The position numbers and the translations under genes are program-made. A stretch of 64,000 bases of DNA from assembly GCA_003971905.1 (NCBI GenBank), contig RSEE01000019.1, positions 124,001 to 188,000 on the forward strand, read 5' to 3'. Below are positions 5,037 through 62,347 of the stretch, in pieces (within the stretch, counting starts at the first letter, position 1; each line of letters begins with the position of its first letter). This DNA comes from Moniliella sp. 'wahieum' (taxonomy: Eukaryota). The notes under the pieces were generated by a model. It saw nothing but the letters and a program-made list of their open reading frames with translations, was not told the origin of the DNA and made no database searches.

Positions 5037-7272
5037 TGAGTAAAGTGTTAGGGACAGTTACGCGCCAGCCAAAACCTGGATAGGATGCTTGTGACATACC
5101 GATCGTCGTTATGCTGCGCTGGGGCGGATGGGACGCCGCAGTGGAGCGATAGGGACGATGGTTTCCGTTCCAGGGAAGGGGGAAGTTCATGGACGGCATG
5201 CTGGACGCTGGACGCACTGAAGGTGAGTGATATGGGTGGCTTGCTCAAACAGATTGAAAAGAGGGTAGGGGTAAAGGAGGCAAATGTGGAGGCTGGGGCA
5301 CCACTTATATATGCGGGACTGAGGTGAGATGCTACAGTACATCGCTGACGTATACCCCACGCTGAGTTTGACCTGTCAGAGCCTGCTCGAAGGCGCAAGA
5401 CACATGATGTTGAACGCTAAACTTCAACATGAGGAGTGAGAAAGAGAGATCAGAGACAAAAGAGAGACAGAGCGGCAAGCGAATAATAGGAGAAATCGGC
5501 GGATGAGATATCACAGTAATTTAGGGGGTGGCGCGGTTACAGACAATGTGGTGATGTGCGATGCTCCACGGGAGATATAGAAACACGAAAGATGATACCA
5601 TGCGGATGACGAAGGGGATCGAGATCCGGCATGTGTGGATCTCTACATGGCCAAAGTAGCTGTTGCTCATGACATCACTTGTATCATTAGAGGGTGCACG
5701 CTGCAATAAAAGACTCCTACCGTCTACTATACTTTATCGTTTTTACCGCGTTTACCCCATACAATATGACAGAAGCGAGGATCTGTGATTTTGGAGCTCG
5801 GCCGCTATACACCCCTTATCTCCTTCCCGGCAACAACCGCTCGGCGCATTGCTCTATCGGAAGCCATGTCGGAGTCGGATACCGGGTAGGGCGGGGGTAG
5901 ATCGGGGTTGTCATGTGCAGATCAAAAAGTTCTAATATACACAGCACTGGTATATGATACGTCTCTAACCTGGCCCGAGGGTGACCTCACGGCCTCTTAC
6001 TAGTAGAACTTACTCTACCTTGTCGTCTCATTTGATATTCACCCGACATGCACCTCGACCTTTCAAGCCTCTCCAGGCACAGTACCAAAAAGTAGGGCCG
6101 ATTACTCCAATATCGTATTTTGCTACTAATTATAGCCCTGCTGTGGTCTCGGCAGATGATTGAAGAGATGAGAGTTACGCCGCCGTCAGTTGGCCAAAGC
6201 CACACAGGGGCATTGTGGACAGCGACGGGCGCAGCAAGGTGAGTCTGTGTGGAGCAGAGAGCGGGAGACGCGTTGAAAAGAAAAGGGAGGGCGCTCTGCC
6301 AGCGACGCACTTCCCACACCGCCCTATATAGTACAGTGGGAATGCGATTTGATGCTGAGCGGCTGAGCCCACATCTTGTTTCTCCCAAAAGTATACACAT
6401 GCCTGCGCTCGACAGGTTTCAGCCTGTCGGCAGGGCGCGCAGGCTGGTGTAGTACCCTGCCCCGCTTCCTACCCCTTTTTGTCCAGCCCAGTGATGATCA
6501 CCGCACACATTAACCATGCGCATCCTACAGTATTGAGAGGAGCCGTGGCAAAGAGGATGTAATGCCGCAGGGGATGGAGATGCTTGATGCATGATAGCTT
6601 AATAGGCTGTGGGCTGGGCTGGGCAAGGCTGGGCACTGGCGTTGGCGTGTGGTGGTGTTGGAAGTATTGTGGTGCAGACGACGCGGGGCTGTGCCACACG
6701 TTCAGCTTCAAGCTTTAAGCTTCAAGCTTCACAGCCGTATAAGCGAGAAATCACGTCTCAAATCCGAGGGACGTGCATTAGAGGTAACCAGTAACCGGTG
6801 ACCAGTAATAGGGTACCTGTCGAATTGAAAAAACCTCGTGATGGATGAAGCTGATGAAGACTACCCCACTAGTATTATATCTGCAGACAGCCACGGGAGT
6901 GCACCTACAGGATAGCGGAGCGTCACCTCTCAGCTATACTCCTTTGTGCATCAACATGTAGAGTCGGAGTCGGGCGATGGCGAGAGGGCGTATTATCCAC
7001 CTTGTCGGGTTTCGTGGGCGGGCGGGCTGGGGCCAGTGACAGGAGAAGATGAACACGAGATTCAAGGTGGCCATGTTCAGTGGTGGGATCGTCGTTTTGC
7101 CTTCCTGGCCCAGCAGAATGCCTGTTGGGGTGCTCAAGGCAGTGGCAAAGACAGGTACTACCGCAGGACTCTCGCCGCCTTGCCCTGTCATGCCATTTTG
7201 TGTCGTCCACACCCGATCCACCATCCTCCACCGCGTCCCGCCTCTCGGCGCGGCTTCATCGATCATCCACAG

Positions 7273-7308
7273 ACGCAACACGCAACACGCAACACGCAAC
7301 ACGCAACG
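7273..7308. repeat. (ACGCAAC)n 7-bp tandem repeat
   Basis: acgcaacacgcaacacgcaacacgcaacacgcaac, 5 copies. Confidence 0.9.
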
Positions 7309-7644
7309 CCCCCCCACCATGCCCACACGGACGGGCGGGTTACGAGATCCATACCACCATACGACAGCTATTGGAGTAGGACAGGGGAGGGGGGGCAAAG
7401 GGTGTGGATATATAATTTTGCTTTGCGTCTCTTCCCCTCCGTGTTGCAAGTGGCGCCGTTTGGCCGACGGTTGGCGCGTGGCTAGTCACTAGTTACTGTG
7501 GTCATTAAAGAGTGTCCCCACGCCGTATGTTCAGTACTCAACTCAGTACTCAGTACTCACTCGGCCCCCAGTCCCGAGCCCAAGTGCACTCTACGTGGGC
7601 TGGGACAAATGGGGGCTCAAGTTACCGCTGCCGTGGGCGGTCCT

Positions 7645-9680
7645 CTAGCCTGGGCCCCCACATGCGCCCCCACTGCCGCAAACACACATCCCACAACACC
7701 ATCGCAATGTGTGCGCGGGCCAGGCGGGGCAGCACGCACGGTGGCCCTCGCGCGCTCGCACTGCACATTGGCCACAGCCCGTCGTGGTCGCATGGTGGGC
7801 GGGTGAGGTCCGCTCCGGCCTCCACTCCGTCCGGGCGGTGGATAGGGGATCGGTTCGATCGGTTCGATTGGTTCGATTGGTGCGGTGCGCTTCCCCCTTC
7901 TTCAGCTTCACGTTCCCGCTCACCATCTTGGACGCCTCCTGCCTCGAGGGACACTGGTCCCGCCATACCAGGTCCCGCGGAAGGGTGCAAGTAACACTCA
8001 GGCCCGTCGACGACGCTCCCAACGCTTCTGGTTCCAGGCACGCCGATAATAAACTTTCGTCCCACCCAGGCGGCTCGGAAAAGGGAGGAGGGGGAGGAGG
8101 AGGAGGCAGACCCTTCATTGTCCACTGGCAAGCAAGGCTCGTGTTCCATCTTGATCGCCGCCGGTGGGGTAGTCGTCTCGGTTTCCGATCGCTGTCAAGG
8201 GCAGGGCGAGGGGTGAGGTGCATCCCGCCACACGCGGCCTTGAAGGGGGCAGGCGTGGTAGGGCAAAACGCTCGAAAGGCTGGGCGGAGAGTTACTTGTC
8301 GTAGATACGGGCACGCCGGTCGAAGTGGTAGGTGGGGCGGCGACGCCCCACGGCGGCAAGAACGGCATGCCCATCCCCGGCCAAAAGGGCAGACCCAACG
8401 GTGGCATTGGCATGCCCGGGGGGGGAAAAGGGAGGAGGCACAGGGGGGTGGTAGTGGGGTGCTTCCCGGTGCTGGGACCGGGGCGGCTGAAGGTCCCGAT
8501 CCCGGGGCATGATGTGGTAGTGCAGCAGCAGCAGCAGCAGTAGCAGCTTCTTCCTTGGCTGCCAAGGCGGCGCGAAGACGTGCGACCTCAGCTTGAAGTG
8601 CGCTCGTTGCGTCGGGCACGGCAGGTGGCAGAGCAAAGAGTGGAGTGAGGATTTCGTGTGCGCTAGGTGGGGGGCAGGGATCCAATGTGGCAGTGCCCAC
8701 GCACGCACAGGACGTTTGCCCCCCATGATCTTCTCCGCAGGGCACTCCCTCACCACGATGTTGTACCACCTGTTGCAGTGTCGATAGCACAGGTTCCGTC
8801 TCGGCCGCCAACGCAGCCACTGTTTTTTCCCCTTGTCCCTCATCCGCCAAGATAGAGAGGAAGGTCCAGACGAGGTGACTGAGGGCACGCGCTTGCCCAT
8901 GCAGCTGCTCAAACTGTTCGCGTCTCGTTGGCGAGAGAGAGGAACGCAGCCGCACGATTTTTGACCAAGCGTGCCTCGCGCTTGGTCAGACCCGAGGTGG
9001 GGCTGGATGAAGAGCGTCGAGTGCGGCGCCGAAGTATCGATCACGGGAAACGGTTTGCCCGACGCGGTGCGTTGCCCCCCTTGCTGGGGGGGTCGTTTGG
9101 GTGCGGCTACCCGCCCTGCCGCTCCAGCAGACATATTGGGTCTGGCGCCTGTGCCAGGAGGAGGCGAGGGCGAGAGCTCAGCGGACTCGACTCTCCTCCT
9201 CTTGGGCGCTGGGCCAGGGGCGGGAAGTGGAGCGGTACGGACGGCGCTTGGACTGGGCTCGGTGGGGGGGGTGGACCCCTCGGAGGCAGAGGCAGAGGCA
9301 GAGGGAGGCAGAGGCAGAGGCAGAGGCAGAGGCAGAGACAGACGTTGAGGCTGAAGCTGCGGCCAAAGCGGCGGGGATGGCGAGGGGTGGGCCAGGGCGA
9401 GGAGGAGCAGCGAGCAGGTGGAGAAGCAGGCGTTGCGAGTCAGAGAGGGTCATGTCGCTCCCATGCGAGCGGGCCCATTGCAAATGGCTCGCTCATGCTG
9501 GGATGGGGGTGGAGGCGATGGGGGAGGCGACGGAGGAGGCGAGGGCGGAGGCGAAGAGACTCGACAAGCGTTGTGCGCAGGCAGGCGCGGGTGTGGGTTT
9601 GCTGTGGTGGGGCGCGGCGCTAAGGCCCGACGCAGGCACGTCGCCTTGGCTTGGCTGGCGTGCAACAAACTGGACATGAC
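7645..9680 (-). CDS. hypothetical low-complexity (Pro/Ala/Ser-rich) protein; boundaries uncertain
   Basis: Long overlapping minus-strand ORFs with a helical-looking segment (REQFEQLHGQARALSHLVWTFLSIL...ALQAEVARLRAALAAKEE); no family motif recognised. Confidence 0.4.
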
Positions 9681-11598
9681 ATACCCGTCGGGACCCGGTG
9701 CCGGCACGGGGGCGGTCTCCACCGGCTCCGTCCTGCCCCGTGCGCACTTTAACCGGGCCGCTCTTCTCACGGCGAAGCGGGTGAGCGCACCAGACTGCCC
9801 CGTGCCAGCGCGCGCGCGGGAGTGGAGCCGCACGCCCAGGCAGTAGGGTTTCTTTGCGTTTTCCGCTCGACGGCGGCCCGCACGGCGCCAGTGTGCAATA
9901 TACCCCACACCCGCCTTCCCGCCCTCGCTCCCACTCGATCCTCACTATTCACACCAACTCCGCCTCCACCGCGGAGGGCGCCGATCGAGCACCAGCCAGC
10001 CCTTGGTTGGTCAGGCATCCTCTCCGAACGCACTGCTCACTACTTGGTCACCGGTCACTAGTCACTACGCCTTACCCATATCAGATGGTCGATGGGGGGA
10101 GGGGATGATGCCGATCATGTCGATGATGCAAGCAAACCACCAGGTAGCCCACACGCCCCGGACTATCCGTCCCAGAGATACCGGTTACCGGTTACCGGTC
10201 TGCGCGTAACGTGCGTAACATGTAACACGGCATACCTATAGATACCGGCAGCCCTCCCAGGCCTGCGTCGACGGCCGAGACGAATTCGAAGGGTATGAAA
10301 AACGATGACTATGACGCGTGGCTGGTGTACCTATGGTGTTTGTGCTGTGATGCAAGTGATGTAGGTGTGACACATGTGACATGTGACATGCGATGATGGA
10401 TTGATTGAGCGTTTGATGCTGAGCCGCTGTGGGAGCGGATGTATTGTGCGATTGATGCAGCTGATGATATCGATGTCGATGAGATATGCGTCACGGCGTC
10501 ACTGCATCAGATAATGCGCTCGATAACGGCCGATTCTCAATCTCCCAAGACGTCAGATCTCGGACTGAGGCCCATACTCTCAGATGCCAGTATGCCAGCG
10601 TAGCATCTCCATCCCATGCACCTACTCATCTCATCAGTACGGCATCAGTGCACACCATTATCAGTCGTACTCAGTACCCCAAACTTACAGCACAAACTAT
10701 ATACTAGCGCCCCCGAGATCGGCAGACAAAACACACGCATCCACCCTGGCACTGTTTGCTGCGACAGGGGGTCGGACAGGGGGGATCCAGTGGATACGCC
10801 CTAAGCGCTGAGCGTTGGCCACCATGCCACGCTGTGAACGGTAGCCCTTTGTTTGGCAACGCAGACGCTGTGTGCATCCTCGTTCTCCAAACAGGCACGC
10901 AACTTGGGAAAGAGTAGCTTGAATAAATAGAACTGTGTCGCGGAGTCAAAAGCCTTAGGCCTGAGGGGGGATAAAAAGAGACTGAGAAAGGGACTTTGTT
11001 AGCGACGGAAAAAGCATTGCAGGTGCATAATAAACACATCCGCCTGGTCTCGCCTGCATGCACCGGTGCTAGTGGGCATTGAGAGCAACGTATAGCCGTC
11101 GGATGGCAGTGGTCGCTCCGCCAATGACGACGGCAGGGGGTGTTGGAATGGTAGTAGGCTCCCCACAATCACTAGACGCATCGAAGCGACATGGTCATCT
11201 GCCGTACTTGGAGCTGGCAACGTAAGCGCTGCACGTGCAGGGCGGGAGCAGCAGAGTTGGACGCTAGGGTTGCGAAAAGACATGTGGGTCGGGCGACAGG
11301 GTAATTGAAGATCATGCATCATGCATCATGCGCGACGCGTGGAGCGAAAGAGTAGGGTTAGCGCTGGACAGACCCAAAATTGGAACTCGGAACTCGGAAC
11401 TAGCGCGTATGGGGGGCGAACTGGGGGGCACTAGGACAGTTCGACGCGCCACGCGTCGCGCGGGCGGCCATTGGACCCGACGCGTCCGGATGACAGCATC
11501 ATCCGCCTGGGCAGAGCAGCTTTGAGAGAAACGGGGCAGTGCGTTTCTCGTGGCTGCTGCCCCCCCACCACCACTACCTCTGCTGTCAATCTCCGACA

Positions 11599-13865
<2,267 letters not shown>

Positions 13866-14737
13866 CTCGCTCGTGGCGCGGCTGTGTGCTGTCCTGGCTG
13901 TGTACTTGTATCCCCTGTTCTTCCCATGTGGTCCCGTAGTCTGTAGATGGCTTTGGCCGCGTCGCAAGAAAGATGTGATGTGTCGTCAGCGTCAGGTGTC
14001 TGGTTCTCGACACAGCACGTGATGCATGCATCACGTGATATGGGCTGCAAAGTTCCAGCTCTAACACGTAACGCGCAGAGCGGATTTCGGATCGCCACGC
14101 CCGCCGCAGCTCACAGCTCACATGCGCCCCAACAAACGCCCCGTGCTCCCCTGCCCCTGCAGCCCCGTGCAGCCCCCGCGCAGCCCGGCTCAAGCAGTGC
14201 CCCCCTGCCCAGAGCACCAGCTCAGCGCTCACCCTTGCGGGCCGGTTGGCGTCCGCCATGCAAGGATAGCAGGCGCAGCGCCGTGTGGCTGAGCGGCCAA
14301 GGGATAGTCGAGACTAGTGACTAGTGATGATGATGCGCATGACATGACGCGTGACGAGGGGCAACAAGGGCATCAGTCGGGCGAGCAGCATGCATCATGC
14401 ATCAACATCATGCTGCTGCTGCGCGGAGACGACGGCACTGAGACAGTTGGATGCGGGAGTGGGCAGGAGGGCAGTGTGCGCTCCGTTCCATCGCCCGGGT
14501 GCTACGCTGCGCGCTGGCTGGCGTGGTGCTGCGGCCGGGCGCGGTGGCGGGGGTGCGGCGTGGTGCGGGAGGGCAGTGTGGTGTGGTGTCGGGGCTGCAG
14601 CGGCACTGGGCTGCTGTGCCACGTTGGGCAGCGCCCGCCTCGGCCTCTGCGTTTGCACCACCCTCGGCCCTCGACCATCGGCCCCCGGCCACAACCATCG
14701 ACCCAACCATCTCGCTTGGGCAGTGTGGGTTTCCCAG

Positions 14738-16520
14738 CTGCGCACCTCGCCCTTGGCCGTCGCCGCGGCAGCCGCTGCGGTGCTCAGCGCGCTGTCCGCG
14801 CTGCCTGCCACCGACGCCCACACCCCCGGCTCCGACTTTGTCCGCATCCACACCCGCGGCGCGCCCCAGGGCAGTGACGGCCAGCGTGTCCCGTGCTTGC
14901 CCGCCAGGCCGCCGCCGCTCCGTTTGCCCCCAGCGATGCCGAGCAGGACCCCGTGCTTCAGGCCGGGCAGGGAAACTACGTCCAGGCGGCCCAGGCCGCC
15001 GATAACATTCCCGGCGTGCAGAGCACTGCCAATGGCAACCTCGCCAGTGTCCGGGCCAGATCGTCAGCGGCGACGGCGTGCAGTATCCCTGGTTTTCAGA
15101 CATCCCCGTCACGCCGACCCTGCAGTGAACGGCAGCGAAGACGGTGGTTGGCAAACGTTGCCTCCTATCCAGGGGTTCACCTTCAACGACACCTTCTACG
15201 TGAGCAACAAGTATAACAACGAATCCGCCATCTTCCCCTACTACATTGCTGTGGACGACCCGCAGACAGTCGAGCGCTTCGTTATTGTCTTCCCTGGAAA
15301 GGTACGTCCCAATCTCGTCTCGCTCTCCCGACCACCCTGTCTAACTTGGTCCCAGCCTCGTGACGTGTGGAACTACGCCAACCTCATGCTCAATGCCCGC
15401 AACATCCCCGTCATTCGCGGCCAACAGGGCGTTGCCCCATGGTCTACTTGGGGCATGACCAATGCTTCGGTAGGGATCGTAGCGCCGGCATTTATGAACA
15501 TGCAGGACCTACAGGCTGGCGCGTGCAAGCCTCAGTACCTATGCTTCAACAACTCGCTCTGGCAACAAGGTGGCACCAACAAGAACCCCGTTATGAAGCA
15601 TTCCATCAGCTCGTTCTTGGCGATGGACCAGCTGCTGGACCAGCTCTTCCTTAACACCACCTACCCCAACCTGAAGCAGGTCGTTGTTGCGGGCCACTCG
15701 TTGGGAGGCCAAGGCGCTCAGCGTACGCGGTTTCTCAAAAAGACCAAGGCCTACGACCCCAACGTGCGCTTTTGGATTGGCAATCCTGGTAGCTGGGCTT
15801 ACCTTACCTCGAAACGTCCCGACAGCAACAGTTCCGCCATCGACACGTACGACCAGTGGCCCTATGGCATCCACCAAAACACGTCTACTGTTCCTTCGTA
15901 TGCTCGCAAGGACGTGATTGCTCAGAACGGAACCCTCGTTGCCGAACGGTACCGCAACCGCACGGTAGGGTACTTTTTGTCTCTGATGGATGTGGGCGCG
16001 GGTGTCACCTCGGCTGCTGCCATGTGGCAGGGCTACAACCACTTGGACCGAGGGTCGAAATTTGTCATGTCCATGGGCCAAGACTTTCCCGATGGCTTCC
16101 CCCCCAACCATACCGCCGATTTTGAAGCGAATCTAACCCATGTTGATTACGGAGGTTCGTCTTCTTCCCTTTTTTTCTTCTATTACACACAGCGTCCTGA
16201 CATTTTGCTCCTTCAGCGTACACTGCCAACATGTCCCTCCAACGCCTCTTTTACGATGGCCTGCACGTCCGGAACCCTTGGTGACCAATGTGACCAATCC
16301 AGGGGACAAGCCTCCTCATATCAAACACCCACCGCACCACAATTCCACCAATGGCACCCACGCCTTTGCCACCCCCAAGCACAAAACCATGGCTCGCTCT
16401 CTGCTTGGAGGCTCCGTGGCCGCTGTGGTGCTCGCATTCTTTATCTTGCCTTGGGTGTTTACCAACAACTACGTGGGAGCATGGGAGAACGAGCCTGTGC
16501 CGATCGATCGCAAGATGTGA
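14738..16520 (+). CDS. putative secreted or membrane-anchored alpha/beta-hydrolase-fold protein; introns about 15302-15354 and 16154-16216; start uncertain
   Basis: Signal-peptide-like LAVAAAAAAVLSALSALPATDA, nucleophile elbow VVVAGHSLGGQ, many N-x-S/T sites, C-terminal hydrophobic LLGGSVAAVVLAFFILPWVF. Confidence 0.7.
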
Positions 16521-17120
16521 TGCGGCAGCCTTGTTCGTTTGAAATCGGCCTGTTTTCCCTGCTCTGCTCGGCCTTGTCACGGGTGCAAGAACCGTGGGAA
16601 CCGCCCTAGCTGCTGTTGCCCGTCTCTCCATTTTGCCATTTTGCACCTACGGGGTTTCCCGATGTGATGGTTTTCCTTCCCCCCTCCCTTGGCTTGCAGA
16701 CCTACTGTTCAGTTTGTCCTGTTATTTGATCTTCGCACAGACTTTTCTTCATTCCACGGGATTTCCATCTCCTTTTCTCTTCTCTTTCTCTTCCTCTCCC
16801 CCCCTCGCTCGTTCTGGTCGTCTCTGCACCCGCCTGCCACCTCTTTTCCACCAATGTATCCCTCTCGGCCTGCCCTTTCTTAGACACAGGGCGCACATAC
16901 GCACATAGTAGAGGCACCTTGCTGGTGCGCGACGGCAGTGGGTGCGGGGGCGGGGAAGGCGGAATCCTTACAACCAAGACGATAGTAGTGCTGTAGGTGT
17001 GCTATACCTGCCCTGTCCACTGCACGCACATTTCCCATACTCTTACACACGCTACACACGTTTCTAAGCCATCCAGACATACACAAGGACAAAAAATCCG
17101 ATAATACCCCAACCAGTAGG

Positions 17121-29669: not shown

Positions 29670-29695
29670 GGGGGGGGGGGGGGGGGGGGGGGGGG
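29670..29695. repeat. poly-G tract
   Basis: Run of about 26 G. Confidence 0.85.
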
Positions 29696-29877: not shown

Positions 29878-30497
29878 TGTTGCAAAAGCGTCTCAAAGTA
29901 TTCCTGCTGAGCTGGTTGGATAGCACGTACTGGCAGATTGGATTCCTACCGTAGCTCCTAACCCCAACTCGAAACACACAGGGTGGTAATGTGGCCCAGG
30001 CCAATAGGCAAGGCGTTGAATTCGACAATCACAGAAAGGCGGGGTGATGTTTCCTAAGAACAGCCTGCGGATAATCACATAGACATCCCCGTGTCACAAC
30101 AGGCCTAGCTTGCGGTGTTAGCGGTAGGCAATGGAGATGGACTCAGTGCCCAGCAAAGGAGAGCTACTAGACCTGTGGAATAAAGGCTTTGGGGGGGGGG
30201 TAGAGCCGGTGTGGATGCTGTTGGCCTATTGTGGCCCGCGTGCGACTGGCGAACGGCTTACTACTCTGTGCGGCGGATGATTAAGCTGCGGAATCCGGCG
30301 CGGGAGGTGACTTGGGCGTTTCAGCTGCAATTTATTGAAAGAAAGGCGCGTCACGCGTCACGCGTCACATGTCACTTGGCTGCGGGCGACGTGTTTTCCT
30401 TCGCGACGCGTCGAATCCTTTTTAGCTTAGCTGGGTGGCCAGCTGACTCGTCCAAGTCCGACAGCTGTCCTCGCGTCTCGGCCCCCGCCACCACCCC

Positions 30498-31950: not shown

Positions 31951-32390
31951 GTAGGACTCGCGTCTTGCCGTTGTGGCGAGCCACAACGGGCGGGGCACTC
32001 TTCCTCCTCCCTCTCCCCTCCTCCTCCTCATGACACATTCATTCGTCCAGCTGCATGTGGCCTTGCATGCATTCGCGTCAATCGATCCGTCCGCCTCTGG
32101 CTTCCAAATCCCAAACCACTCTTGTCGTGCGCGCTGCTCCTACTGCTCTTTGTCCTTTTGACCCTTTCTTTGACCCCCCCCCCCCGCCCCCGCGCGCGCC
32201 TACGGGCTACTGCATCCTACTTTATGTCCCAGTCATGCGCCCTCTGAATCCAAATCATCATTCGCAACGCATCTTTCTCCTCAATACGCACGCTGAGGGG
32301 TCCCACCGGTCACCAGACTTGGTTCCGCCCAAAAACGGATGTAGAGACCGAGACAGAGACAGAGACAGAGATAGAACCAAAGAGCCACAC

Positions 32391-33934: not shown

Positions 33935-34536
33935 CGTGGGCACAGCAACCGGGCGGCCGGCTTCTTTTCTACCACGGCGTTAACACCCGCGAGGCCAATC
34001 GGGACGGTATGCAGGGGCGGCTGATGGCGTCATCGATGCGCTTACCTCAGCGGCCATGCCGCGGCCGCGTCTGACGGGCAGGCGGCGTGGCTGGGGCAAG
34101 CGCGTGCGGGTGCGGACACAGCAGGCGCGGCCCAGCGGCGACCCCCCCCCCGTTCCCTCCGCCCTCCCGCCGGCCGACAGCCTTCACGCGTCCAGCGTCC
34201 AGCGCCCCTCGCCCCCTGGCCTCGTCCGCACATCCATCCAGAACATCCCGCCAGCAGCCACCCCAGCCCATCTGGACAGCAAGCTCATCTCAACGATGGA
34301 TAGCCATGCAATGTTCAACGTTCTGCACTGAACGTTCACTTCACACTGCCACTCGTGCAGGCGAGCGCTCGGTGGGCCGAGGCCAACAGGCACTGGTCAC
34401 GTGGTGGGCACCTGCCTCCCGCTGACGTCAGCAGCCGCGTTGGCACCCCAGTACCCCCCCCCTCCCGCCTGTCGGGGGCTGCAACTGTCGTGTCGCATCC
34501 GAGCCAGGGCAGGTGGGCTGCTGCGTCCTTGCCATC

Positions 34537-37022: not shown

Positions 37023-37690
37023 GGATGCGGGTGGTTGCACTCGTATCATGGGCTCTTGGCAGGATTCGGTTGAGGACGGGTAAGATCGACAGTGAGAGCT
37101 GAGCTAAGCAGCGCTGTCACATGCTGTCAGCGCTGACACATGAATGGGTAATGGGGACCCCAGAGGGCAGGGTTGCGCATGTCTGTGCGTGGGCGATGTG
37201 CCCGGGGGCGGCGGGTGCGTGCGGTGCGGTGGCCGGCAGTGTGCGTGTGCGTGCTGACATGTGACATGCGACAGCGCAGTAGGGTTGCCATCGGTGCAGG
37301 CGGGCAGCGGGCGAGTGTGGGGCGGCAAACGAGGGGGCAGCACGCCAGGGCGGCAAGCGGCGGAGATGGCCATGGCTTGGGCGCGGCTTGCGGGCTTGCC
37401 GCTGGCTGGCTGGCTGGGTGCAGGGCAGGCGATGCAGGGGGGCGTGCCGGGTGCTGCGGCGCGATGCCAGCGTCGGATATCGCCGCCGGCTGGCACGGTG
37501 CAGTGCCCGGGCGTGCGGGGCCCGCGACGCATGACGTGCTGCATGGGGCGCCGCAGCACGCCGCTGTGCCTGCGGCCCGCATCACGCATCGCCCGGGCGC
37601 TGCGTTGGGCCGCCTGCATGCTGCCCGCCAGCGCATCCGCAGAAAAAAAGCGCCCCCCCCCGCGCTTTTCTTCCTTCCCCCCACCTGTGC

Positions 37691-40098: not shown

Positions 40099-41319
40099 TT
40101 TGGGTGGAGCCTGTCCACGTTCCTCCCCCCCCCCCCCCCTAATGCCCCAGTGCGATCTCCATCTTGGACAGCCAACGACCGGCGCTTGGACCGAGCAGGA
40201 TGGGTCGAGCGGTTGGCTCGTGTCACTGCGGGCGGACACGATGTTGTTTTGAGAGAATGTGATCGCGCGGCTTGTGACGTTCATGGAGCTTGAGCTTGAG
40301 CTTGAGCTCAAGGTTTATCTTGAGGCTTGAGGCCTTGAGGGTTTAGCGTTTAGCTTGAAGCTGGAAGATTTGTAGGTTTAGGTTGTGTGGCAGGGCACTG
40401 TCGTGCTGCTAGGATCTAGGACGTCGGGACGGGATCGTGGACCAACGCGGCGAAGTAAGGAAACTTTTCTTGACACGACAGAGCGTCCATGCATCATGTA
40501 TAGGCAACCAAGCACCCACTCCTCGCCCGGGTCCAAGAATCATGTTCATAGTACTATAGTAGCCCGACCGTGGGCGGTACTATATACAGAGTCCTACATT
40601 CTTGTTTGATCTTACATCTTAGATCTTCCCTCTCCCTCTTGAAGGTCAAGCTTCATGAAGGGTGCATTTACTCCGGGCAGCCGCTATTTTTTGGTGGGGC
40701 AGACCAACAAATGTCAGCGTTCTCTCGCTCTCGGATGGACCTGGGTCGGCTGTCCAAAACGAGACTTAAGAGAGGACTAAGGAACATCAGCCATCCGCAG
40801 CGATCTCTCCTGCTCTGACAAGCGACATCGGATTCGAGCCATATATATTGTTTCTTTCTTTCCCTCAGGGGGGGTCTCCCACTTGTTCCCCCCCCCACCC
40901 ACCCATCCCGCCTCCCACCCTACAGCTTGCAGCCTGAAGCCTAGGTGGGAGCCACCACGCCGCCCACGCCTCAACCTGGGGAGCGCGAGACGGGGTTTGG
41001 GGTCCCTTTCCCCTCTCCCGAGACGAGTCTCATCCCTGGGCCAGGAGATGCAGGGAGGCACTACAAGCCTGGGCGGAGGATGCCAATGAACCAGACGGAG
41101 GAGTGCACGGCACCAAAGTCACTCCTGTGTGGGCCCCCTCGCAAACTTCGAGCTTGGAGCTTAGAGTGGGGAGCTGGGAGCTTGGAACATTGTGCGCGCC
41201 AAGCAACTCCCGCACGAAGAGTACGTGGTCGATCGTGGGTTCCCTAAAACGCGTACGACCCAGCTGCCTAGGAGACTGCGTGGGCCGTGCGAAGCACCGA
41301 CGGGAATGCAAAATCCAAG

Positions 41320-42642: not shown

Positions 42643-42713
42643 GAACAGAACAGAACAGAACAAACAGAACAGAACAAACAGAACAGAACAAACAGAACAG
42701 AACAAACAGAACA
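42643..42713. repeat. (GAACA)n/(AAACA) pentanucleotide-type repeat
   Basis: gaacagaacagaacagaacaaacagaacagaac... Confidence 0.9.
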
Positions 42714-43903
42714 GATACACCGTCCCCTGTGTCCGAGCATTGTCCATTTCTCCACACCATACAGGAAAATATTCGCCACGCGTTCCGTCTCTCAGGGCGG
42801 ACTACCCGTAGTGCCCACTGTAGTTGGCGCTTTGTCCCTCTGCCGTGCTGCAGAACTATTGATTTGCCCTTCTTCTTCTAACTACTAGGCACACCATTAA
42901 AAGCGGAGAACGACTTTGGCAAGACCTTCTGGTTCTCGCGTCTTCCTCTCTGTTCATCACGGTCCCACGGAACAGACAGGTTTTATATCGCAGCTGAGAG
43001 TGTTCCCCAACGGAAATGGACATGTACCCCCACGGGTCCACTGCACTGCAGGGTGGCTCAGTGCGAATAGTGGTAATGGATTCACACCTGCCTTGACATC
43101 CCCTCTTCGTCTTCCCAACAACGATCCTTTTTGACGAGCCTTACCAACACCCCCCCCCCCCTCTCTCTCTCTGCCAAAGCGACCGGTTCTGTGCTGTACG
43201 TACGGGACGCAGAGACGGAGCGGTCGTCTGGGCGGACCTAGGCCGGTCTCCTATACAACGCCTGCATGATCGGTTACACACAGGTAGATGTCTGCCACTA
43301 AAAGCAGCCTGTGTCGAGCAGCACTCCCAACAGGGCCCGGCCACCACAACGTAACACAGCACCCCAATCCTTTCTGGGAATCGTGTAATTGACACATTTC
43401 TTTCCTTGTCAACAAGCCTTGACGAGGTCGTAGATGAGCTGTTGGTAAGCAGGCCGTGACGACAAGGAAAGCCTCATCTGCACGGAATGGGGCCAACTTC
43501 AAGACGTTTCAATCGCGCGCGGACAGCATCAAGCTCCGTGGCTCCATACTCAGTACTCAGTGACGGCCAGCTGGGCCATTGGGCTCAAAACGAAAAAAGG
43601 GGAGGGGGAGTACAATGAAAGGAAGGAGGGGACCTAGCAACACTAGGGAAGCTGGGTCACGGTCAACGGTCAACAAACAAGGCGGGATGGTGCGACAGCG
43701 AGAACCGGCCCAGCAAGAATCAGCCAGCCGGGCCCGAAACAAAAAAAAAATGATAAACAGGGGGTTTTGGTAGCGCGAAGCCGGGGCAGTTCGCTATTAC
43801 AGAAGGATGATTGAGTCAACGTGACGCGCGACGCCGTGGGAAAGGGAACACCACACCACCCCGAGTCCACTCTCTCTGGAGAAAGAGAAGGCGATCGAGA
43901 AGC

Positions 43904-45054: not shown

Positions 45055-45557
45055 CGGGAGGGGGAGTGGAGGTGGCGGGGGCAGAACGAGCGCAAGGAGG
45101 CAGACGGCGAGGACGGGGAGGAGGCCAGCTTGAGCCTAGGCTTTTGGGGGACGAATCGAGGAGGCTTGGGATGCTGGAGAAGGAGGGCGGACTCACTCAT
45201 TAATCACGCCTCCCGCCGCGCTTCTCGGCCGATGACGTCGGCAGCTCCTGCACAGGGGCAGTGTTCTACGGACCTGTCCTCAGCCAGCGCCCAGCAGCCT
45301 TGATCTCAAATCTCTAATCGCACACGCCGCCGAACGTTTCAACTCCCCCTTCCACGTGGACTGCATGCCGGCGCATTCGGTGCAAGCGACGAGGATGGCC
45401 TCGGATTGGGCGGCAATTTCAAGCCCCATTCCGCCGGACGCAGCCGCCGGCGCATCCCGCATCCCAGCGCCACTCCCGTCGCCCAGCGGTCGAGCAACTC
45501 GGCCGGCGCTCCGCCCCCACCGCCTCCTCTCGGCGTGCTCCTTCGTCTGGCGCTGCG

Positions 45558-48500: not shown

Positions 48501-49080
48501 TTCGCGCGGCGGGGAGGAGGAGGCACCGGTGGGGGGGGAATGGGGCTCGGTGGGCCGCGGCGGATTGCGCACAGTGGCCTATGTCCCGCCTCCGCCAGAC
48601 AAGGAGCACCAAGGATTGTCGACGGTGATGCTGGAAGTGCAAGCACAAGCGGTGGACCATGCGCGGCGTGTGCGTGCGCTGGAGCATGCGGAAAAGGACT
48701 GGGCCCAGGCGCGCACCCAGCTCGCCCAGCGCCCGGGCCGGTTCGCCCAGCAGCTCGCTGGGTTTGTGGGGCAGGGCCAGCTGCGGCAGACGGGCGGGTG
48801 GCAGAGACGGAGCGAGTGCGGCAGCAGCGGGACGAGGCCACGCGGTTGGCCATGTTGTCGGGCGATGCGCATCAGGTGGGCGGGCACCGGTAGGAGGCGG
48901 GCCGGTTGTGAAGCCCAAGCGGCTCATCTGGGGCGGCGTGCCGGGCGAGGGCGAGAGGAGGAGGAGGAGGAGGAAGGGGTGGAGGTGGAGCAGAGCCAGG
49001 TGCCTGAAGCAGTCGGTGCCTGGGCGACTGGGTACATACTACAAGACAAGATTGCCATACTGAAGATCGATGATCGATAA
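45558..49080 (+). CDS. BUD6: actin-interacting protein Bud6/Aip3; intron about 47470-47610; end approximate
   Basis: LESTVTRLLIAT..LLDSLTKW, VSDVFVRL, VPDDLRACLETCLSEEAS, LERRASKRFS, VYVQLGR.TKK, LRMVFVDKFAY, WKKTWEEEL..I.DEQ. Confidence 0.88.
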
Positions 49081-49438
49081 GTGATAGCTCGGCTGACCTG
49101 GGGGAGGACGAGGGTGACCGGTGGTCGATGAGCGATGATAAATATTAAATGATTGATGAATCGATGAGCGAATGGTCCCCCACATGGCGCGGTGCGTGAC
49201 CGGTGACCGGTGGGGCCGGGGACTGAGGGCGGTCTGGGCAGGCGAGGCGAGGGAAGTGGGCGAGTGACGCGTGACGAGTGAGTGATCAGGTGACCATCGA
49301 TCAGTGGCGTGAGTACTGAGTACTGAGTATAGTGCTGGGCGAGGGCGCCATGGCCACGTGCGAGCGCTGTCCCGGCAGTGGGTATATATATATCCAGGCA
49401 GTCATATTCATACCGTCCACGGCCAGCTAGTATACCCG

Positions 49439-52400: not shown

Positions 52401-52988
52401 ACATCTGACCTGATCCGATCCACAGGTGGACCCGTTGGTGCGGCAGCGCGCGTGCCTGCTGCAGCAAGAGTGGGTCGAAGACCAAAGGGGTATGCTGTTG
52501 CTGTGCAACGATGTGATCCTGCTGCTGCTGGAACAGGAAAAGGCGGGGAGAGTCGGAGCATGCGGAAAAGCTCTCTGCCACAACGCTTTGGGCGTCGCTC
52601 GTCCACGTTGGGAGCGCCTACCTCCGCATCTGTATCTACTCTACCTCTGCATCTGCTTCTGCATCTCCCTCGCATCCCCCACCGTCGTTGAGCCAGCTTC
52701 GGATCCCGCCCGCGTTGGTGGGGGGGAAAGGGGGGTGCGGCTGGGTGGTCAAAGCCTCAATTGACCTCGTTCCTGCTCGTACAGAGTTGGAGGCCGAGCA
52801 GGCCACCGTTACTGGATCGACGGTACGTCTGTGTGCGCCACATGCCATTTACTACCGCCTGCCCCTCGGCCATCGCGGCAATCGAATGGGCCAAGCTCGT
52901 TGGCTCGGCCCAACGGGAGCGGGCTGAGGCGCTGAGGGCGCTGAGGCCTGAGGGCCTGAGTCCGGGAAGCCTGAGGCCTGGGGCCTGA
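49439..52988 (+). CDS. LRR-containing Rho guanine nucleotide exchange factor (LRR-DH-PH-like); start uncertain (alternative ATG near 49674)
   Basis: LRRs (LISLDLSQCALSHLP, LEELVLSGNPL, LHLDGNPF); DH motifs LEELVGSETYVQEL, VFSNVEALL, FLRMYTTYINN, LESYLLLPVQRIPRYRLML, MNEAKR; PH-like RRLLKEG and LLCND. Confidence 0.82.
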
Positions 52989-53823
52989 AGTTCAGCATGA
53001 TGCATGAGGGTTCACACTTTCACAGTTCACATGATGTATGAACGTTGAGCACGTTGAGCCCCGCTTCCCATCCCCCTTCCCCGATGCCCCTCTCTCATTC
53101 TCTATTAGTTTTTTTTTTTTTTTTCGTATTATCTTCGGCGTACCTGCCCCTCCCCTTGTTTTTATCGTCGTTGTCATCACCATCTCTTCGTCGTCTTATT
53201 TCGTTCTCTGTCTTGTTTATGTGTTGGGCTAGTCGTTCCCACATTCAATGTACCATCGTTCAACTGAGTCTTCTCTACTAGTCTCTAATAAGTACAAAGT
53301 AGTCTCAGGTATCTCGCTGGGCAGGTCATTGAACTCGGGACTCAACGTTGATCAGTCGGCCTTGAAGAGCTTGAAGCTTGAAGCTTGAGGTTTGAAGCCC
53401 AGGGTTGGGCGAAGTAGCAGTACTAGTACAAAGTATCCGGAAGGTTTATACACCTCTCAGCCCTTCTGCACAGAACCCACCGCACTGTCCTGCTCGTGCC
53501 CACGTGTCTCGCTCGCTCCCGATGATCGATGATCAGATCGATCGTATACCAATCCCAGCCCGTGGCGGGCTGTGCTGGGCCACTCTACTATAGTTACTTG
53601 GTTCGGTCCGAACCCTTGGTCTCGAGTTGGCTGGTCGCATTGGTCGCATGCATGATATATGATACCCGATACTCGATATCGATAACCTTAGGTCCGTTGA
53701 TGTCACATGTCAGAAAAGATCTCGGATCTAACGTTGCATATATGTATTCGCGGGAAGGAGCTTCTGTGGGGCTTAAATTCATTATTGCGGCGAGCTGTAG
53801 GTACAGAGAGTACTGACTGTGCG

Positions 53824-54026
53824 CTTGAAGCTTGAAGCTTGAAGCTTGAAGCTTGGAGTTTGAACCCATCTGACACCGGTGGCGCTCAGGCTAAGCGCTT
53901 AGCTCCGTCTCTGACACAGGAAAGCACCCGGAACGGGGCAGGGAAATGCGCTGGAGGGTCCAACATCACCAAAATCTATTAATCCCTCATACCAGACTTG
54001 AAGCTTCAAAAGCTTCAAGCTTCAAG
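53824..54026. repeat. (TGAAGCT)4 array and an oppositely oriented (AGCTTCA)n array forming an inverted repeat
   Basis: cttgaagcttgaagctt at 53824 is the reverse complement of aagcttcaagcttcaag ending at 54026. Confidence 0.85.
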
Positions 54027-54579
54027 TCGAGCCGAGCTACTATTGTAACCAAGTCGCGCCCCTTTGGCTAAAGGCCGGGCACGGACATAGGGAAAATAAT
54101 GGGCCTTTGACATCAACGTTCAACAACGCGAGAGAGTGTGGGAGTTGTGGAGGGGGGCGGGTAATACGCACACATATGGTAACGCCATGGCCACAGCTCC
54201 ACCCTGGCTGCAATGGTGTCGAGTGGAGCAACACTGGCCCCGTGCAGCAAGTGAAGGAAGCCCGAGCTGCGGTGCGCGGCTGTGGTGCTCGATAAAAAAA
54301 GGGTGCTACTGTCAGATCAAGTGGTGAATGGAGGATTGGCAAAATCGATAATGGACTGTCTTCTGTGTCCCCTCTGGATCATGCGATGTCGATGGTGTGT
54401 GTACACAGTGTACACACACGTATATATATTTGGGAGGAGAGGCACAGCAGATAGCCCATCAGAACGACTTCTCTTTCCTTCAATAATCCAGCACACTCAC
54501 GTTCCCTTCCAACCTTCTCCTTCTTCCCTTATTCTTCTTCAACCCGGGTCGCTTTTCCTAATCCATACACCAGCGGCAC

Positions 54580-57434
54580 CAGCATCACCTTTCGTCCACC
54601 TTTCACTCTCTCCCTGTCATCCGCCATTGCTGGAGTCGGCCTCACTCTGAAAAAGCATACGCCAGATGAAGGTGCCGCGTCCCTGGACCTATCCCCGAAA
54701 GACTTGGCCAGCATTGCCCAAGCGCCACCATCCCAGCGCCCACGTCTCATCCGCCAGCTCACCCAGCCAACCATAACTTCTTCCTCGTCCCATTCCAAGC
54801 TGCGTGCGTCTTGCACTCCCCCTCCCCCCTCCTCTCTCCCTCTCATACTCCTTACTCCACCGCTGTTGAGGCAATCGCATGCGCATATGCACGTTACTTA
54901 CCTCCCGTACTCTCCACGCAGATATACAATTCTAGTTGTAGCCCTCTTTTGGTCATCACCTTTCTCGTTCGCTTGATCACCTTTGTCGCGCGGCCTTGGC
55001 GCCTGCGCCAACGTCGACCCCCATTAGCGCAAATGCATTGTCACGGTGGTACCTCAACCAGCTGCTGGAGGCACCCCTGTTCAAAACGCGCCGTGCGACC
55101 CCACTGGAACTGATTCATCGTACCGTTGTGGTCCGTGTGCCTGGCCGACTCCATGCACTTGCGCTCTTGGCTCTCATCGTGACCAATTTGGTTGCTCTTT
55201 TTGCCTTTGCGAACCCTGTGGTGGATGCGCCATCAGAACTGTGAGTGGCCAACAAATATCCCCAGACTGTGGTAGGATACATTGTGGTGCCTGTGGATGG
55301 AAAAAATCTGACCAATTCTGGGAACTCTTTTCGGTCCTATGTCCTTCTGTACCCCTGTATCGGTGTGTGGGGGGGGGGAGCAGAGGATCGTCCAGGCAGC
55401 AATATGGGAGAATGTTGCAGTTGCGCTCGGTGGCGCTGTTAATGGCACAGCTGCCACTGGTATTTGCCCTGGCGGGACGCAACTCGCCCATCGCGTTGAT
55501 CACAGGCGTAAGTTTCAACACCTCGATGCTGTACCACCGTTGGTTTGCTCGTCTTATCGTTTTCCACGCGATCGTTCATGGCTCCTCCACGACCTGGCTC
55601 AAGCTCCAGACTGGACGGGCTAGTCTGCAAGAACTGTATGCGTACCCATTTGCCCGTTGGGGAATTACCCCGCCTCTGCCTCTTTTGTCTCATTTGCTTC
55701 ATGGCTTATATTCCGATACGGAGGTATTCGTATGAGGTGCGTCAACTCATTCTCCACATTCGCTCCCCCCCCCCCCCCCCCTTTTGTCAACAGAGATGCC
55801 CACTAAAAGGGAGAAAACGAAACAAAAGTGAGGAAACACATATATATTGTGGTCTAACTCTCTTCTGTCCTATTCATGTGCAGTTTTTTCTCGTGTTCCA
55901 TATTGTCATGGTTGTCCTCACCCTCGTCGCTCTCTGGAAACACATGGACCTGCAAGGTGTCTCGCGCTACTCGGACTTTTTCTACTACCTTTACACGGCG
56001 GTGGCGCTATGGTCGGTGGAGCGGGTGTGGCGCACGGCACGAGTGGTGGGGATGAACCTGGGACGGAACGAGTGGTATGCATGGCAGGACGAGAGCGAAC
56101 GAACCAAGAAGCAATGGTACGAAGGGTGGACTTCGCAGGCTGTCTGTCGCACCCTGCCCGACGGTGCAGTGCACGTCGGATCTACCTGGCTGGCTGGTTG
56201 GCGCGCCATTCGCCTTTGCTCACCGTCAAGGCGGGGCAACACGTGTACCTCAACCTGCCCCTTGTTCAACTGGGCAGCATGCACCCTTTCTCTGTCATCG
56301 CCAGTGGACACCAGTCGGTCCCCGACAGCCTGCCCATCTCGTCCCCCGACCCAACTCTTTCCCCAGTACCTCAACGAACCGCCCAACCGTACCTTGACCT
56401 GGCCATCATGCCTCAATCTGGGTTCACGCGGCGGCTCACAACCGAGGTCCGTGGCCGTCACCCCGGCGCGTTTGCCACGCCGGCGTTTGTGGAAGGTCCG
56501 TACGGGAGGCCCGTTGATGCCTCTGGGCACCGCACGCTTGTTCTGCTCGCTGGAGGATAGGGATCACGCATTGTCTCGCAGTCCTGGTCCACACTCTTAC
56601 TGGGGTGTGTACTGCCCCACCGTGGAGGAACGCAAAAAAATTGTATTGGTGTGGAGCGTGCGGGATCCGCGGTCATTTGCCCTTCTTCTCCCTACCTCGT
56701 CCTCCTTGGACAGCATCGCGGACCACGGAAAGTTGTCCGGCCCTGCCCGACTTACGATCAAAGTGTTCCTCACCAGCCCTGGTCCCCCTCCACGTCCAGC
56801 ATTCACCACGATCGCAAGAGCATGTCAAATGACGAGATTGGCGTGGCTACTGGACGTACCGAGTACCTCCTGGACCAAGTGCGCGACGCAAAGAAAGAAG
56901 GAGATTCAGGGCCAAGAAGGCGTTGAAGTGGTGGTCGATCTCGGCTCACGGGGAAGAGACGTACGCCGGCACGGTGACGCCAAAGACAAGAATCTGTCGG
57001 TACAACCGCCAGGCACGCCCGTTCCACCTCCCTCGTGCACGCACCTTCTGCGTCCGACGCTACACTTTCTTCCGTCCTTTCCCATCGGCTTGGATGGTCG
57101 GATGCACGCTCTGCAGCTCCAACTGAAGACAAAAAGGACGAGGCAACCAAAATGGGGATCCCACCTGCTTTACTCGAGGTGTTGATAGAAGAGTCCCATG
57201 TGTCGAAAAACGACTTGGCACTGCTGGAGGCGCATTCTGCCTTGTTTTTTGAGCTGGGAAAAGGCCTGATTTTGTGCAAGAGATGGCGACGGCCATCCCT
57301 GCTGGTGAAAGGAACGTCTTGGTTACCGCTGTGGTGCACCGGCCTTTTCAGATTCTGTCCGTAACGCCGTTCGGCAAGTACGCTCAATAAGCCATTGTAC
57401 CATTGATTTTCACGAAGAGTGTTTCTCATGGTAA
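54580..57434 (+). CDS. ferric/cupric reductase (FRE family); intron about 55737-55883; start uncertain
   Basis: LAGRNSP..ITG.SF..SMLYHRWFAR...HAIVH and FH...LWKH heme histidines; GQHVYL, HPFS (FAD), VEGPYG, LLAGG.GIT, LVWSVR (NADPH); ends DFHEECFSW*. Confidence 0.88.
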
Positions 57435-60600: not shown

Positions 60601-62347
60601 GACGGCTGCGTCCAGCTGGGCCTGTGGGCTGGTGCGGGGGAGGCGAGGGGCACTACGCCGCAGGGTGCATGCAGTACTTACTCCTCCAATAGAGCGCAGC
60701 AGGTGCACCCGTTGGGCGTCTGCCAGTCTGCCGCTGTAGGGAGGGCATGGCGTGCGGCATGCTGGCGCATCAACGACTAAGCTCTAAGCGCTGCGCTGCC
60801 AGCTGCTGAAGCCTATCGATGGTTAGCACGTTCAGCGTACGTTTAGCGCGCTGAGCACTTCCAGCGTCGCGCAGCGCCCTGCCCAGCAGCAGGGGGGCAC
60901 GGCTAGCGGGATGCGATCGATGCGTGGGCATGGGACCGGTGACGCGTGACGTAGCCAGCGACTTGACTGTGGTGACTAGATGATCGATGACTACCGATAC
61001 TGAGTACTGACTACTGACCGGTGATAGAGGACAAGTAATGCATGATGCACGCAACAAGCACATGTGTGTGTTTCTTATTTTCGGAGCTCTCCGATCTCCG
61101 CCACCGCTTGACCCAGAGGCTGATGCGCTGAAGCTTCAAGCTGACCCTCCCCCCAAGACCAGGGCGTGAGGTCCTGAGGCCTGAGGCTGAAGGCCTAAGG
61201 TTCACCGGGCAGGGCACTGTCCATGCCAGCACGGGTGGCCGATGATCGATGATCGATGATCGATGACCGTCACAGGTTGAGTAGAATGTGGCTTGCTGGG
61301 ACGCAGAGCAGGCGGCACGCGCTGGCACAGCGCCAGAGGGAGCCTCAGACCCTCGCTTGGCCGTGCAGGGTGCAGGCGGTGTGTGACATGCCATGGAGGG
61401 TGTGTGATCGATGTGATCAGGAGCATGCCTCCGGGGTGTCTGTGGCGGACAGGCGCCGTGGCGTTGCGGTGGCAGTGTCTGCTTGTCTCTACCTGTCTCT
61501 GGCGTATCTGCCCGCCCTCCGCCCTCCGGCGCTGCCTGCCCCCGCAGTGCCCCGGCGTGCCCAGCCTGCCTAGTCCCTGTCCTCTGGATCGTGGGTTGCG
61601 CACTTTAGACGTATTACGTACCAGGTGCGTTATTCCCGCACTGCAGGTTTTGTCACGTGACTGGAGTGCGCCGCAGTGCTGGCCAGTGGCCGCCAGCTCA
61701 GATATGGTCCTGTTGGCCCCACTCGACCCCTGCGCCCTATACAACAGTGGGTGACGCCATCGCGCCCACTCTTGCCTGCAAGCACTACCTCCTCCTACTC
61801 CTCCGCCCCTGGCGGCCAATAACGTTTAACGTACTCTTCATTCCCAGACCTCCCCTCCCTTTCCGTTGCTCGTGCCTGCCCCATCCCACCCATCCCATCC
61901 CAACACAATAACCATTCCCTCATCAGGCCTCGGCCGCGTGGTGCCCCCGGTAAAAACATACCCTACTAACAACCTCTCTTTTCTCTTCTTCTTCCGCGCA
62001 GTTTTGCTTTGCTTTTTTCATTCGCCTAACCTTCTTCACCTTATTCACCCCGCCTACTCAGTATATCATGTCGCCATGATGCATGACGACAGCTGTTGCA
62101 AATGGTTAGGCTGACGTAAATGGTCCGTGCTTCCTCCAGGCCGTCGAGCCTCACGCCGGCCTCACGCCGGTCTCACGCTCACGCCTCACGCGCCATCGTC
62201 GACCCCAAATCGCAATCTGCAGTCCCTAGTCACTATCACTAGTCCATCACTAGCCACCTTACTCAGTACACAGACACTGCCCCAACACACCCCTGATGAC
62301 CGATGACCACCCCAGTAGAATTCTTCTACCAAATTGGACGCGGGCCC

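Follow-up and report, generated by a model that had tools for sequence, protein, structure and literature searches.

The 64-kb stretch of DNA analysed here (the window) carries in its non-coding spacers many short arrays with a 7-bp period, in which T-N-A triplets (TNA, where N is any base) alternate with palindromic 4-bp cores (TNA-N4-TNA). We judge it probable that these arrays are the excision scars of a cut-and-paste transposon, not itself in the window, that forms hairpins on the flanking DNA which are opened about 2 nt off the tip, one strand then being ligated. The scars consist of a duplicated and an inverted part, are centred on TNA, keep a complete 7-bp copy in variants that gain 9 bp, follow a rule by which one copy gains as many inverted bases (p) as the other copy loses (d), and are absent from coding DNA. 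All counts are confined to the 64-kb window unless metagenome loci are named, and chance expectations are the means of dinucleotide shuffles (30 shuffles for the TNA-N4-TNA counts).

An earlier note on this DNA had named a series of such arrays, and direct reading of positions 6600-7700 together with lists of period-7 repeats and of T.A-palindrome-T.A strings recovered all of them at, or a few bases from, the positions it gave. It had also proposed a test for an excess of palindromic cores and of TGA and TCA recurring at a distance of 7 bp, and both are in excess: TNA-N4-TNA pairs with the same N in the two triplets number 91 where 32.0 are expected, N4 is palindromic in 52 of them as against 1.8 in the shuffles, and recurrences at lag 7 number 47 for TGA (15.0 expected) and 34 for TCA (13.1 expected). 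For the other 60 triplets the proportion of palindromic cores is 5.6% (102 of 1836), chance being 6.25%. Exact period-7 runs of at least 14 nt number 44, and in 20 of them the unit combines a 6-bp palindrome with a single spacer base; each of these 20 palindromes has the form A-N4-T, and the spacer is C or G in 19 cases and T in one. By our own tally there are fourteen different kinds of palindromic 4-bp core, none of them preferred, and the multi-unit arrays comprise five with two cores and four with three. The core can change within an array while the 7-bp phase is kept, as had been noticed before, at 10048-10064 and 30351-30374. The central base of the triplet is G or C in 49 of the 52 palindromic events, compared with 75% (1111 of 1481) of the TNA sites outside Pfam-supported open reading frames (ORFs), which suggests a target preference for TSA over TWA, with the caveat that events within one array are not independent.

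A rough gene map was made by a Pfam search (E <= 1e-4) of all 275 ORFs of at least 110 aa, and coding DNA was defined as the Pfam-supported ORFs (23,388 bp) in place of ORF coverage, which is too crude a proxy. These ORFs contain 634 of the 2115 TNA sites and none of the 52 palindromic events (binomial p = 1.5e-8), so the absence of the arrays from coding sequence that had been reported by the earlier note is real. The events are clustered (variance/mean 1.94/0.82 per kb bin): the 1.7-kb spacer at 52757-54454 holds 13 of them and the ~250-bp one at 49065-49330 several; many other spacers hold none. Overall there is about one scar per few hundred bases of non-coding DNA, or dozens of events per 64 kb. 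By our own, underpowered reading of the gene map the events sit in spacers that contain a promoter, and the two convergent 3'-3' spacers have no events, their combined length being only ~560 bp and this comparison likewise underpowered.

The arrays are real and abundant, but what determines the sequence of each core? In 45 of the 52 palindromic pairs one half of the core repeats, in inverted form, the two bases that lie directly outside a flanking TNA triplet. In an unbiased scan of the two strands, strings in which two copies of any 5-mer X enclose the reverse complement of the last 2 nt of X number 101 (8.6 expected), and X is TNAnn in 60 of these (0.2 expected). There are 45 such flank-copied pairs centred on TNA where 0.2 are expected, and each of the 15 other XNY centres has 1-8 (36 in total, about 9 expected). 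A second unbiased scan, of the 4+3 form, gave 79 hits (7.4 expected); in 74 of them the palindrome has A as its outer base, and 60 of these 74 A-closed hits have T immediately before N. When the 91 TNA-N4-TNA pairs are classed, a palindrome goes with a match to the left flank in 15, to the right flank in 14 and to both in 16 (0.1, 0.1 and 0.0 expected), and pairs with neither palindrome nor flank match number 22 (23.9 expected); the whole excess thus falls in the classes with both palindrome and flank match, as the excision-scar model predicts. The length of the inverted part, for X = TNAzw, is sharply peaked: observed and expected numbers are 10 and 4.9 for 0 nt, 12 and 0.9 for 1 nt, 61 and 0.2 for 2 nt, 3 and 0.05 for 3 nt, and 1 and 0.05 for 4 nt.

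Grouped as arrays (n = 43), 29 match the flank on one side only, 7 on both sides and 7 on neither. Comparison of the two N bases shows identity in 52 cases, complementarity in 6 and neither in 8, and the junction is therefore a direct duplication and not a fold-back copy. Because the cores are derived from the flank, the events are mostly one-sided and N keeps its identity, the elementary event turns x y TNA z w into x y TNA z w w' z' TNA z w (mirrored when on the other strand) and amounts to a direct duplication with two inverted bases in it. Several other derivations of the core were considered and rejected. Origin from the element's own ends, as in a Tc1/mariner-like footprint with a 3-bp TNA duplication, is ruled out by the match of the cores to the flank; P nucleotides (palindromic bases left by an opened hairpin) from a flank that ends in TNA would give a T-N'-N'-A core, which is not palindromic; fold-back copying would make the second N complementary; and duplication of a pre-existing near-palindromic 7-mer predicts that both flanks match, which only 7 of the 43 arrays do. 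The 5 + 2 + 5 form also occurs at centres other than TNA (41 where about 8.4 are expected, for example at 4502, 9203, 38595, 43823 and 45284); some of these are rotated phases of TNA arrays, and about 20 look independent and GC-rich and may be off-target events or an effect of composition.

Could the arrays be ordinary microsatellites, in which near-palindromic 7-mers expanded via hairpin-favoured slippage or quasi-palindrome template switching? Multi-unit arrays are present (the five and four above), array ends run at least 3 nt past the minimal pattern more often than 1 in 4 (our own grouping), and A-N4-T-S units can pair with one another. However, slippage should make whole-unit copies independent of the flank, and the commonest event is the minimal one-sided one of ~12 nt (29 of 43) with a flank-determined core, which provides neither a prior full unit for slippage nor microhomology for re-priming. 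The microsatellite explanation also leaves unexplained why the inverted half equals the flank in 45 of 52 pairs, why the centre is strictly T-N-A, why there are variants that gain 9, 8 or 6 bp, and why the better-pairing palindromes closed by G...C are absent (outer base A in 74 of 79), and we regard it as improbable. The earlier note's argument that simple slippage is inadequate is thus upheld on the ground that cores depend on the flank and one-sided minimal events are commonest. Its suggestion of a palindrome-generating mechanism is right in kind, a DNA hairpin being the simplest source of inverted bases, but template switching is not supported, since the one-sided events lack re-priming microhomology and N is kept far more often than it is complemented (52 versus 6).

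The variants of the scar point to the length of the original duplication. When scars are tabulated by p, how many inverted bases one copy has gained, and d, how many bases the other has lost, the p = d diagonal dominates, with 25 loci at (1,1), 34 at (2,2), 34 at (3,3) and 3 at (4,4), each against 0.2-0.3 expected; (2,2) and (3,3) are the same strings, since T pairs with A. Because the bases gained by one copy equal those lost from the other, the net gain on this diagonal is +7. Off-diagonal scars are rarer but enriched: 6 loci at (2,0) with 0.0 expected, 3 at (1,0) with 0.1, 3 at (2,1) with 0.1 and 10 at (1,2) with 0.8. Net +7 scars are thus dominant, and +9, +8 and +6 scars are each enriched over shuffles. 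The +9 form, nnTNAnn + 2 inverted bases + nnTNAnn, is found at six loci (6844, 10366, 52931, 53044, 53361 and 61403) where 0.0 are expected; period-9 hits of this form number 19 in about 12 loci by our own grouping, 6 of them centred on TNA compared with about 4% of random 7-mers. A 9-bp tandem array at 7848-7881 (GATCGGTTC, 3.8 copies) has a TCGA palindrome and no TNA, yet scores in the period-9 scan. Among the five non-palindromic 7-bp duplications at TNA four fit p = d = 1; three or four loci have p of 4 or more, with palindromes up to 14 nt; and no +11 scar, in which both overhangs would be kept, was found in the window, so that route was rejected as well. From these patterns the target-site duplication is more likely to be 7 bp centred on TNA than 5 bp, because the 5-bp reading is oddly asymmetric, with TNA at one end and the inverted bases always at the other. 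Two period-6 arrays, (GCATGA)n at 1344-1370 and (GAGCTT)n at 40286-40331, have the form TNA z w w'; they are the +6 scar variant (one inverted base gained, two lost) expanded to a hexamer microsatellite. The scars are also of mixed age and not a single recent burst, because 35 perfect loci coexist with 38 that meet 8 of 9 constraints (a class with 94 hits, 7.2 in shuffles); this is a rough guide, as the 8-of-9 class includes variant footprints.

The transposon, its hairpin chemistry and the succession of repair steps are deduced from the scars, not observed directly. The element would insert with a 7-bp stagger centred on T-N-A and so create a target-site duplication nnTNAnn. At excision the transposase would cut flush with the element ends and seal each flank as a covalent hairpin, and a host nuclease would open both hairpins at an equal distance, usually about 2 nt from the tip. 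The opened flanks would then carry self-complementary 4-nt 3' overhangs, z w w' z' on one and y' x' x y on the other. Of the two overhangs one would be end-joined directly to the other flank at its recessed 5' end and the second discarded; the product would be x y TNA z w w' z' TNA z w, or the same in mirror image, with one copy longer by p, the other shorter by p and a net gain of +7. The choice of ligated strand would decide which of the two flanks the core mirrors, and unequal opening of the two hairpins would give the +6, +8 and +9 variants. Since every scar recreates the target twice, repeated hits, possibly together with slippage, could lengthen the arrays, and hits at one TNA that use different flanks could switch the core (10048, 30351). 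A route from flank hairpins through their opening by the host to end joining is published for hAT, Transib, MULE and RAG (excerpts of PMC5499845). Features of such footprints that are found here are a retained duplication (the 5-nt direct repeat TNAzw occurs 61 times where 0.2 are expected, and full 7-nt copies are present at the six +9 loci), P nucleotides (45 of the 52 palindromic cores mirror the adjacent flank dinucleotide), and one dominant footprint (net +7) with variants of a few bases; an element and transposase with a matching duplication were not found in the window.

The arrays and scars in the window are as follows.
6708-6731: AAGCTT array with three cores, TCA-AGCT-TTA-AGCT-TCA-AGCT-TCA (direct read and T.A-palindrome-T.A list).
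6844-6859: +9 scar, GATGAAG + CT + GATGAAG, that is, a 7-bp copy, 2 inverted bases and a 7-bp copy (variant scans).
7256-7267: single +7 scar, TCATC GA TCATC.
7531-7559: AGTACT array of TCA-GTAC units.
10048-10066: adjacent pair of scars, TCA-CCGG-TCA-CTAG-TCA, whose cores each mirror their own outer flank (GG on the left, CT on the right).
10179-10227: ACCGGT array with TTA junction (10179-10199) and a single TAA-CATG-TAA scar.
10366-10390: +9 scar (on the minus strand TGTCACA TG TGTCACA) overlapping an ACATGT array at 10372-10390.
11311-11331: ATGCAT array, upstream of the MCM gene.
14222-14404: four scars close together, with cores GCGC, CTAG, CGCG and TGCA, between MCM and the gene next to it.
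14312-14327: ACTAGT (T.A-palindrome-T.A and period-7 lists).
30347-30374: ACGCGT array that switches to a CATG core.
37255-37268: ACATGT scar, upstream of the SAM decarboxylase gene.
40319-40354: non-palindromic +7 scars, CTTGAGG twice and GTTTAGC twice, which fit p = d = 1 (one inverted base gained, one base lost).
43547-43561: AGTACT scar.
49065-49329: five scars or arrays (TCGA, ATAT, CCGG, CGCG and GTAC cores) in the ~250-bp spacer between Bud6/Aip3 and LRR-RhoGEF; among them are ATCGAT at 49065-49080, ACCGGT at 49196-49212 and AGTACT at 49310-49329.
52931-54124: densest cluster, 13 palindromic TNA pairs, in the spacer between RhoGEF and ferric reductase.
52931-52946, 53044-53059 and 53361-53376: three +9 scars in the densest cluster.
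52942-52951: AGGCCT.
53368-53388, 53823-53855 (an array) and 54010-54026: AAGCTT in the densest cluster.
53890-53903: perfect palindrome of 14 nt in the densest cluster.
60940-61266: cluster with single scars at 60940, 60981, 61001, 61015 and 61129, an AGGCCT scar at 61173-61187 and an ATCGAT array at 61240-61266.
61403-61418: +9 scar, TGTGATC GA TGTGATC.
62077-62086: single TGA-TGCA-TGA scar of the left-flank type.

Several results weigh against excision as the source of these scars. Pfam (E <= 1e-4) revealed no transposase domain in any of the window's 275 ORFs of at least 110 aa, and no element with inverted ends lies between matching nnTNAnn copies there (2 of 937 candidate pairs passed, both being the arrays themselves). 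The scars are far more uniform than published footprints such as those from rice (excerpts of PMC4423477), and plain 7-bp duplications are not specific to TNA (5 at TNA, 1-20 at other centres). Inverted parts of 2 nt and 3 nt are indistinguishable since T pairs with A. In addition, the flank opposite to the one copied partly matches the palindrome, with one of two bases in 13 of 18 single events where about 7 are expected (hand count); some single events may be decayed longer arrays, or the target itself may be weakly palindromic.

The first of these results would be explained by a host enzyme without a mobile element, be it a flank-hairpin transposase that has been domesticated or some other nuclease making 7-nt staggered cuts at nnTNAnn, which keeps writing stereotyped 7-bp insertions into open intergenic and promoter DNA; the pattern would then reflect a continuing host process of mutation or editing. 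The lack of any element or transposase in the window fits this, as do the extreme uniformity, density and mixed age of the scars and their clustering in a few gene-upstream spacers. But a staggered cut followed by fill-in gives plain direct duplications without inverted bases, and to obtain both a 7-bp duplication and hairpin bases such an enzyme would have to perform strand transfer and then a hairpin-forming cut, as a transposon does in two visits; no candidate gene for it was seen in the window. We consider a host enzyme unlikely, but less so than the microsatellite explanation above, and prefer excision of a transposon that forms flank hairpins.

The window itself is a gene-dense eukaryotic stretch of ~60% G+C that is rich in short tandem repeats. 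The gene map includes an MCM gene, a bromodomain protein, TAF2, a PP2A-type phosphatase, a WD40 protein, an ABCF protein and glutathione reductase (GLR1), and further Snf7, SAM decarboxylase, Pop3, SURF4, Bud6/Aip3, LRR-RhoGEF and ferric reductase. The best named match of the GLR1 ORF (32261-33979, minus strand) is from Tilletiaria anomala (67% identity), and further matches are spread over the Ustilaginomycotina, with two relatives at 85% and 77%; because of these matches the host is taken to be a smut-related basidiomycete. A 753-codon open frame at 14348-16606 (plus strand) has no Pfam match at E <= 1e-4; its product contains a GHSLGG stretch that we take to resemble the nucleophile elbow of serine hydrolases. 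Other repeats in the window include a long (AC)61 microsatellite followed directly by (GA)21 at 4865-5040, homopolymers at 29670-29695 (G26), 40125-40139 (C15), 53109-53124 (T16) and 55765-55781 (C17), and an array at 42643-42715 of GAACA and a 14-mer (GAACAAACAGAACA) with about 5 copies that match at 98%.

Other lineages were sampled by a metagenome search with the GLR1 protein, in which no close relative turned up. The three best loci share 59% identity with it, and at two of the three the GLR1 protein is 90% identical to that of M. nana and 80% to that of M. japonica, respectively, so these control loci are Malassezia-like. In their 54.6 kb there are no palindromic cores among 11 TNA-N4-TNA pairs. 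In 77 other metagenome loci fetched with GLR1 (1.12 Mb) 43 of 1038 pairs (4.1%) are palindromic, compared with 52 of 91 in the window. Because of these differences (0 of 11 and 4.1% versus 52 of 91) the pattern is lineage-specific at this sampling.

These findings bear on the idea, offered as one of two options by the earlier note, that the arrays are selected cis-regulatory or chromatin elements in which a factor reads phased TGA/TCA half-sites. The arrays do lie in non-coding spacers that include promoters, and the lag-7 recurrence of TGA and TCA is strong. As an account of their origin, however, a phased code fails, because the local flank dictates the core in 45 of 52 pairs, which indicates mutational copying and not a conserved motif. 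Moreover, none of the fourteen cores is preferred, many intergenic spacers have no arrays, many copies are decayed, and the three Malassezia-like loci lack the pattern. Selection as the origin is therefore very unlikely in our view; use of the arrays by some factor at a later time is a separate matter and could occur. An assembly or sequencing artefact is the least credible explanation of all, as it would not invert two flanking bases solely at T-N-A, would not spare coding DNA (0 of 52 events) and would not display single-base decay.

How do these scars compare with those of known transposons? A literature search returned no description of such arrays, most subscription journals lying outside its coverage. 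Elements of the hAT superfamily such as Ac/Ds and Hermes have the target consensus nTnnnnAn and an 8-bp duplication. The +9 scars here show 7 bp (nnTNAnn), with T at position 3 and A at position 5, and so differ from Ac/Ds, a hAT element that duplicates 8 bp. The window palindromes are also even (z w | w' z') and centred between two bases, unlike those of Ac/Ds, which are centred on the complement of the base that adjoins the element (excerpts of PMC5873905). The sole odd centre in our scars is N, for which a 1-nt offset predicts the complement and which is kept in 52 cases and complemented in 6; a hAT-type parse with such an offset was rejected, as it cannot yield even palindromes with N preserved. 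A third difference is that the scars of the window are natural, far more uniform and present at about one per few hundred non-coding bases. The likenesses are that the duplication is kept at the empty site, that short palindromic P nucleotides are copied from the flank and that a few footprint types predominate; in Ac/Ds the P nucleotides are explained by flank hairpins opened off-centre and then end-joined, and Ac/Ds excision is on record as leaving such palindromic scars in plants and also in two fungi, budding yeast and Candida albicans (excerpts of PMC5873905). The window pattern works like the footprint of a flank-hairpin transposon, yet it misfits an Ac/Ds-type hAT in two defining points, the duplication length and the palindrome centre.

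Basidiomycete cut-and-paste elements that, like the one proposed here, duplicate 7 bp were described in December 2025, namely hAT7 in rusts and Kyakuja in Agaricomycotina (excerpts of PMC12730594), and hAT7 belongs to a superfamily known for flank hairpins. They differ in that neither is reported from Ustilaginomycotina and that no such element or transposase was found in the window; the available parts of the text and supplement of PMC12730594 give no target consensus and no footprints for hAT7 or Kyakuja. Kyakuja elements lack inverted ends. The V(D)J, RAG and Transib systems resemble the window scars in that a flush border cut gives symmetric flank hairpins and even palindromic P nucleotides. 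RAG cuts flush at the element border, and the duplication made by Transib and in RAG transposition is 5 bp long. The dominant scar could also be parsed as 5 + 2, but 7 bp is the better fit to the six +9 scars and to the p = d rule, and no RAG-like or Transib gene was seen in the window.

Tc4 of Caenorhabditis elegans shares with our scars a T-N-A target at the centre of an interrupted palindrome, since it duplicates TNA within CTNAG (excerpts of bioRxiv 10.1101/2023.11.06.565293); it differs in duplicating only 3 bp, whereas the duplication in the window extends past TNA. In addition, TNA is not flanked by C and G in the 18 single events, and the window scars carry bases derived from the flank and not from the element. 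Rice excisions likewise make excision scars a measurable source of small insertions near genes, but they are heterogeneous and tied to identifiable elements: only 8 of 94 were 'perfect' and most had deletions (18 bp on average) or filler DNA (13 bp on average) (excerpts of PMC4423477). The scars in the window are uniform and very dense, they seed tandem arrays, and their element is unseen.

If excision of a flank-hairpin transposon is indeed the source, the scars alone would disclose the target (T-N-A), the duplication length (7 bp) and the cleavage chemistry (flush cut, flank hairpins) of an element that is not in the window, as well as the offset at which the host opens hairpins and its habit of joining them. 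Excision scars could then be one of the main ways in which new short tandem repeats arise upstream of genes: 20 of the 44 exact period-7 repeats in the window have the scar form, and some period-6 arrays fit the +6 variant. They would also form a natural record of hairpin repair in a basidiomycete, whose dozens of events per 64 kb are comparable to laboratory footprint collections and whose uniformity contrasts with the heterogeneous footprints of plants. If instead a host enzyme were responsible, this lineage would have a built-in, site-directed generator of promoter microsatellites, and hence of regulatory variation.

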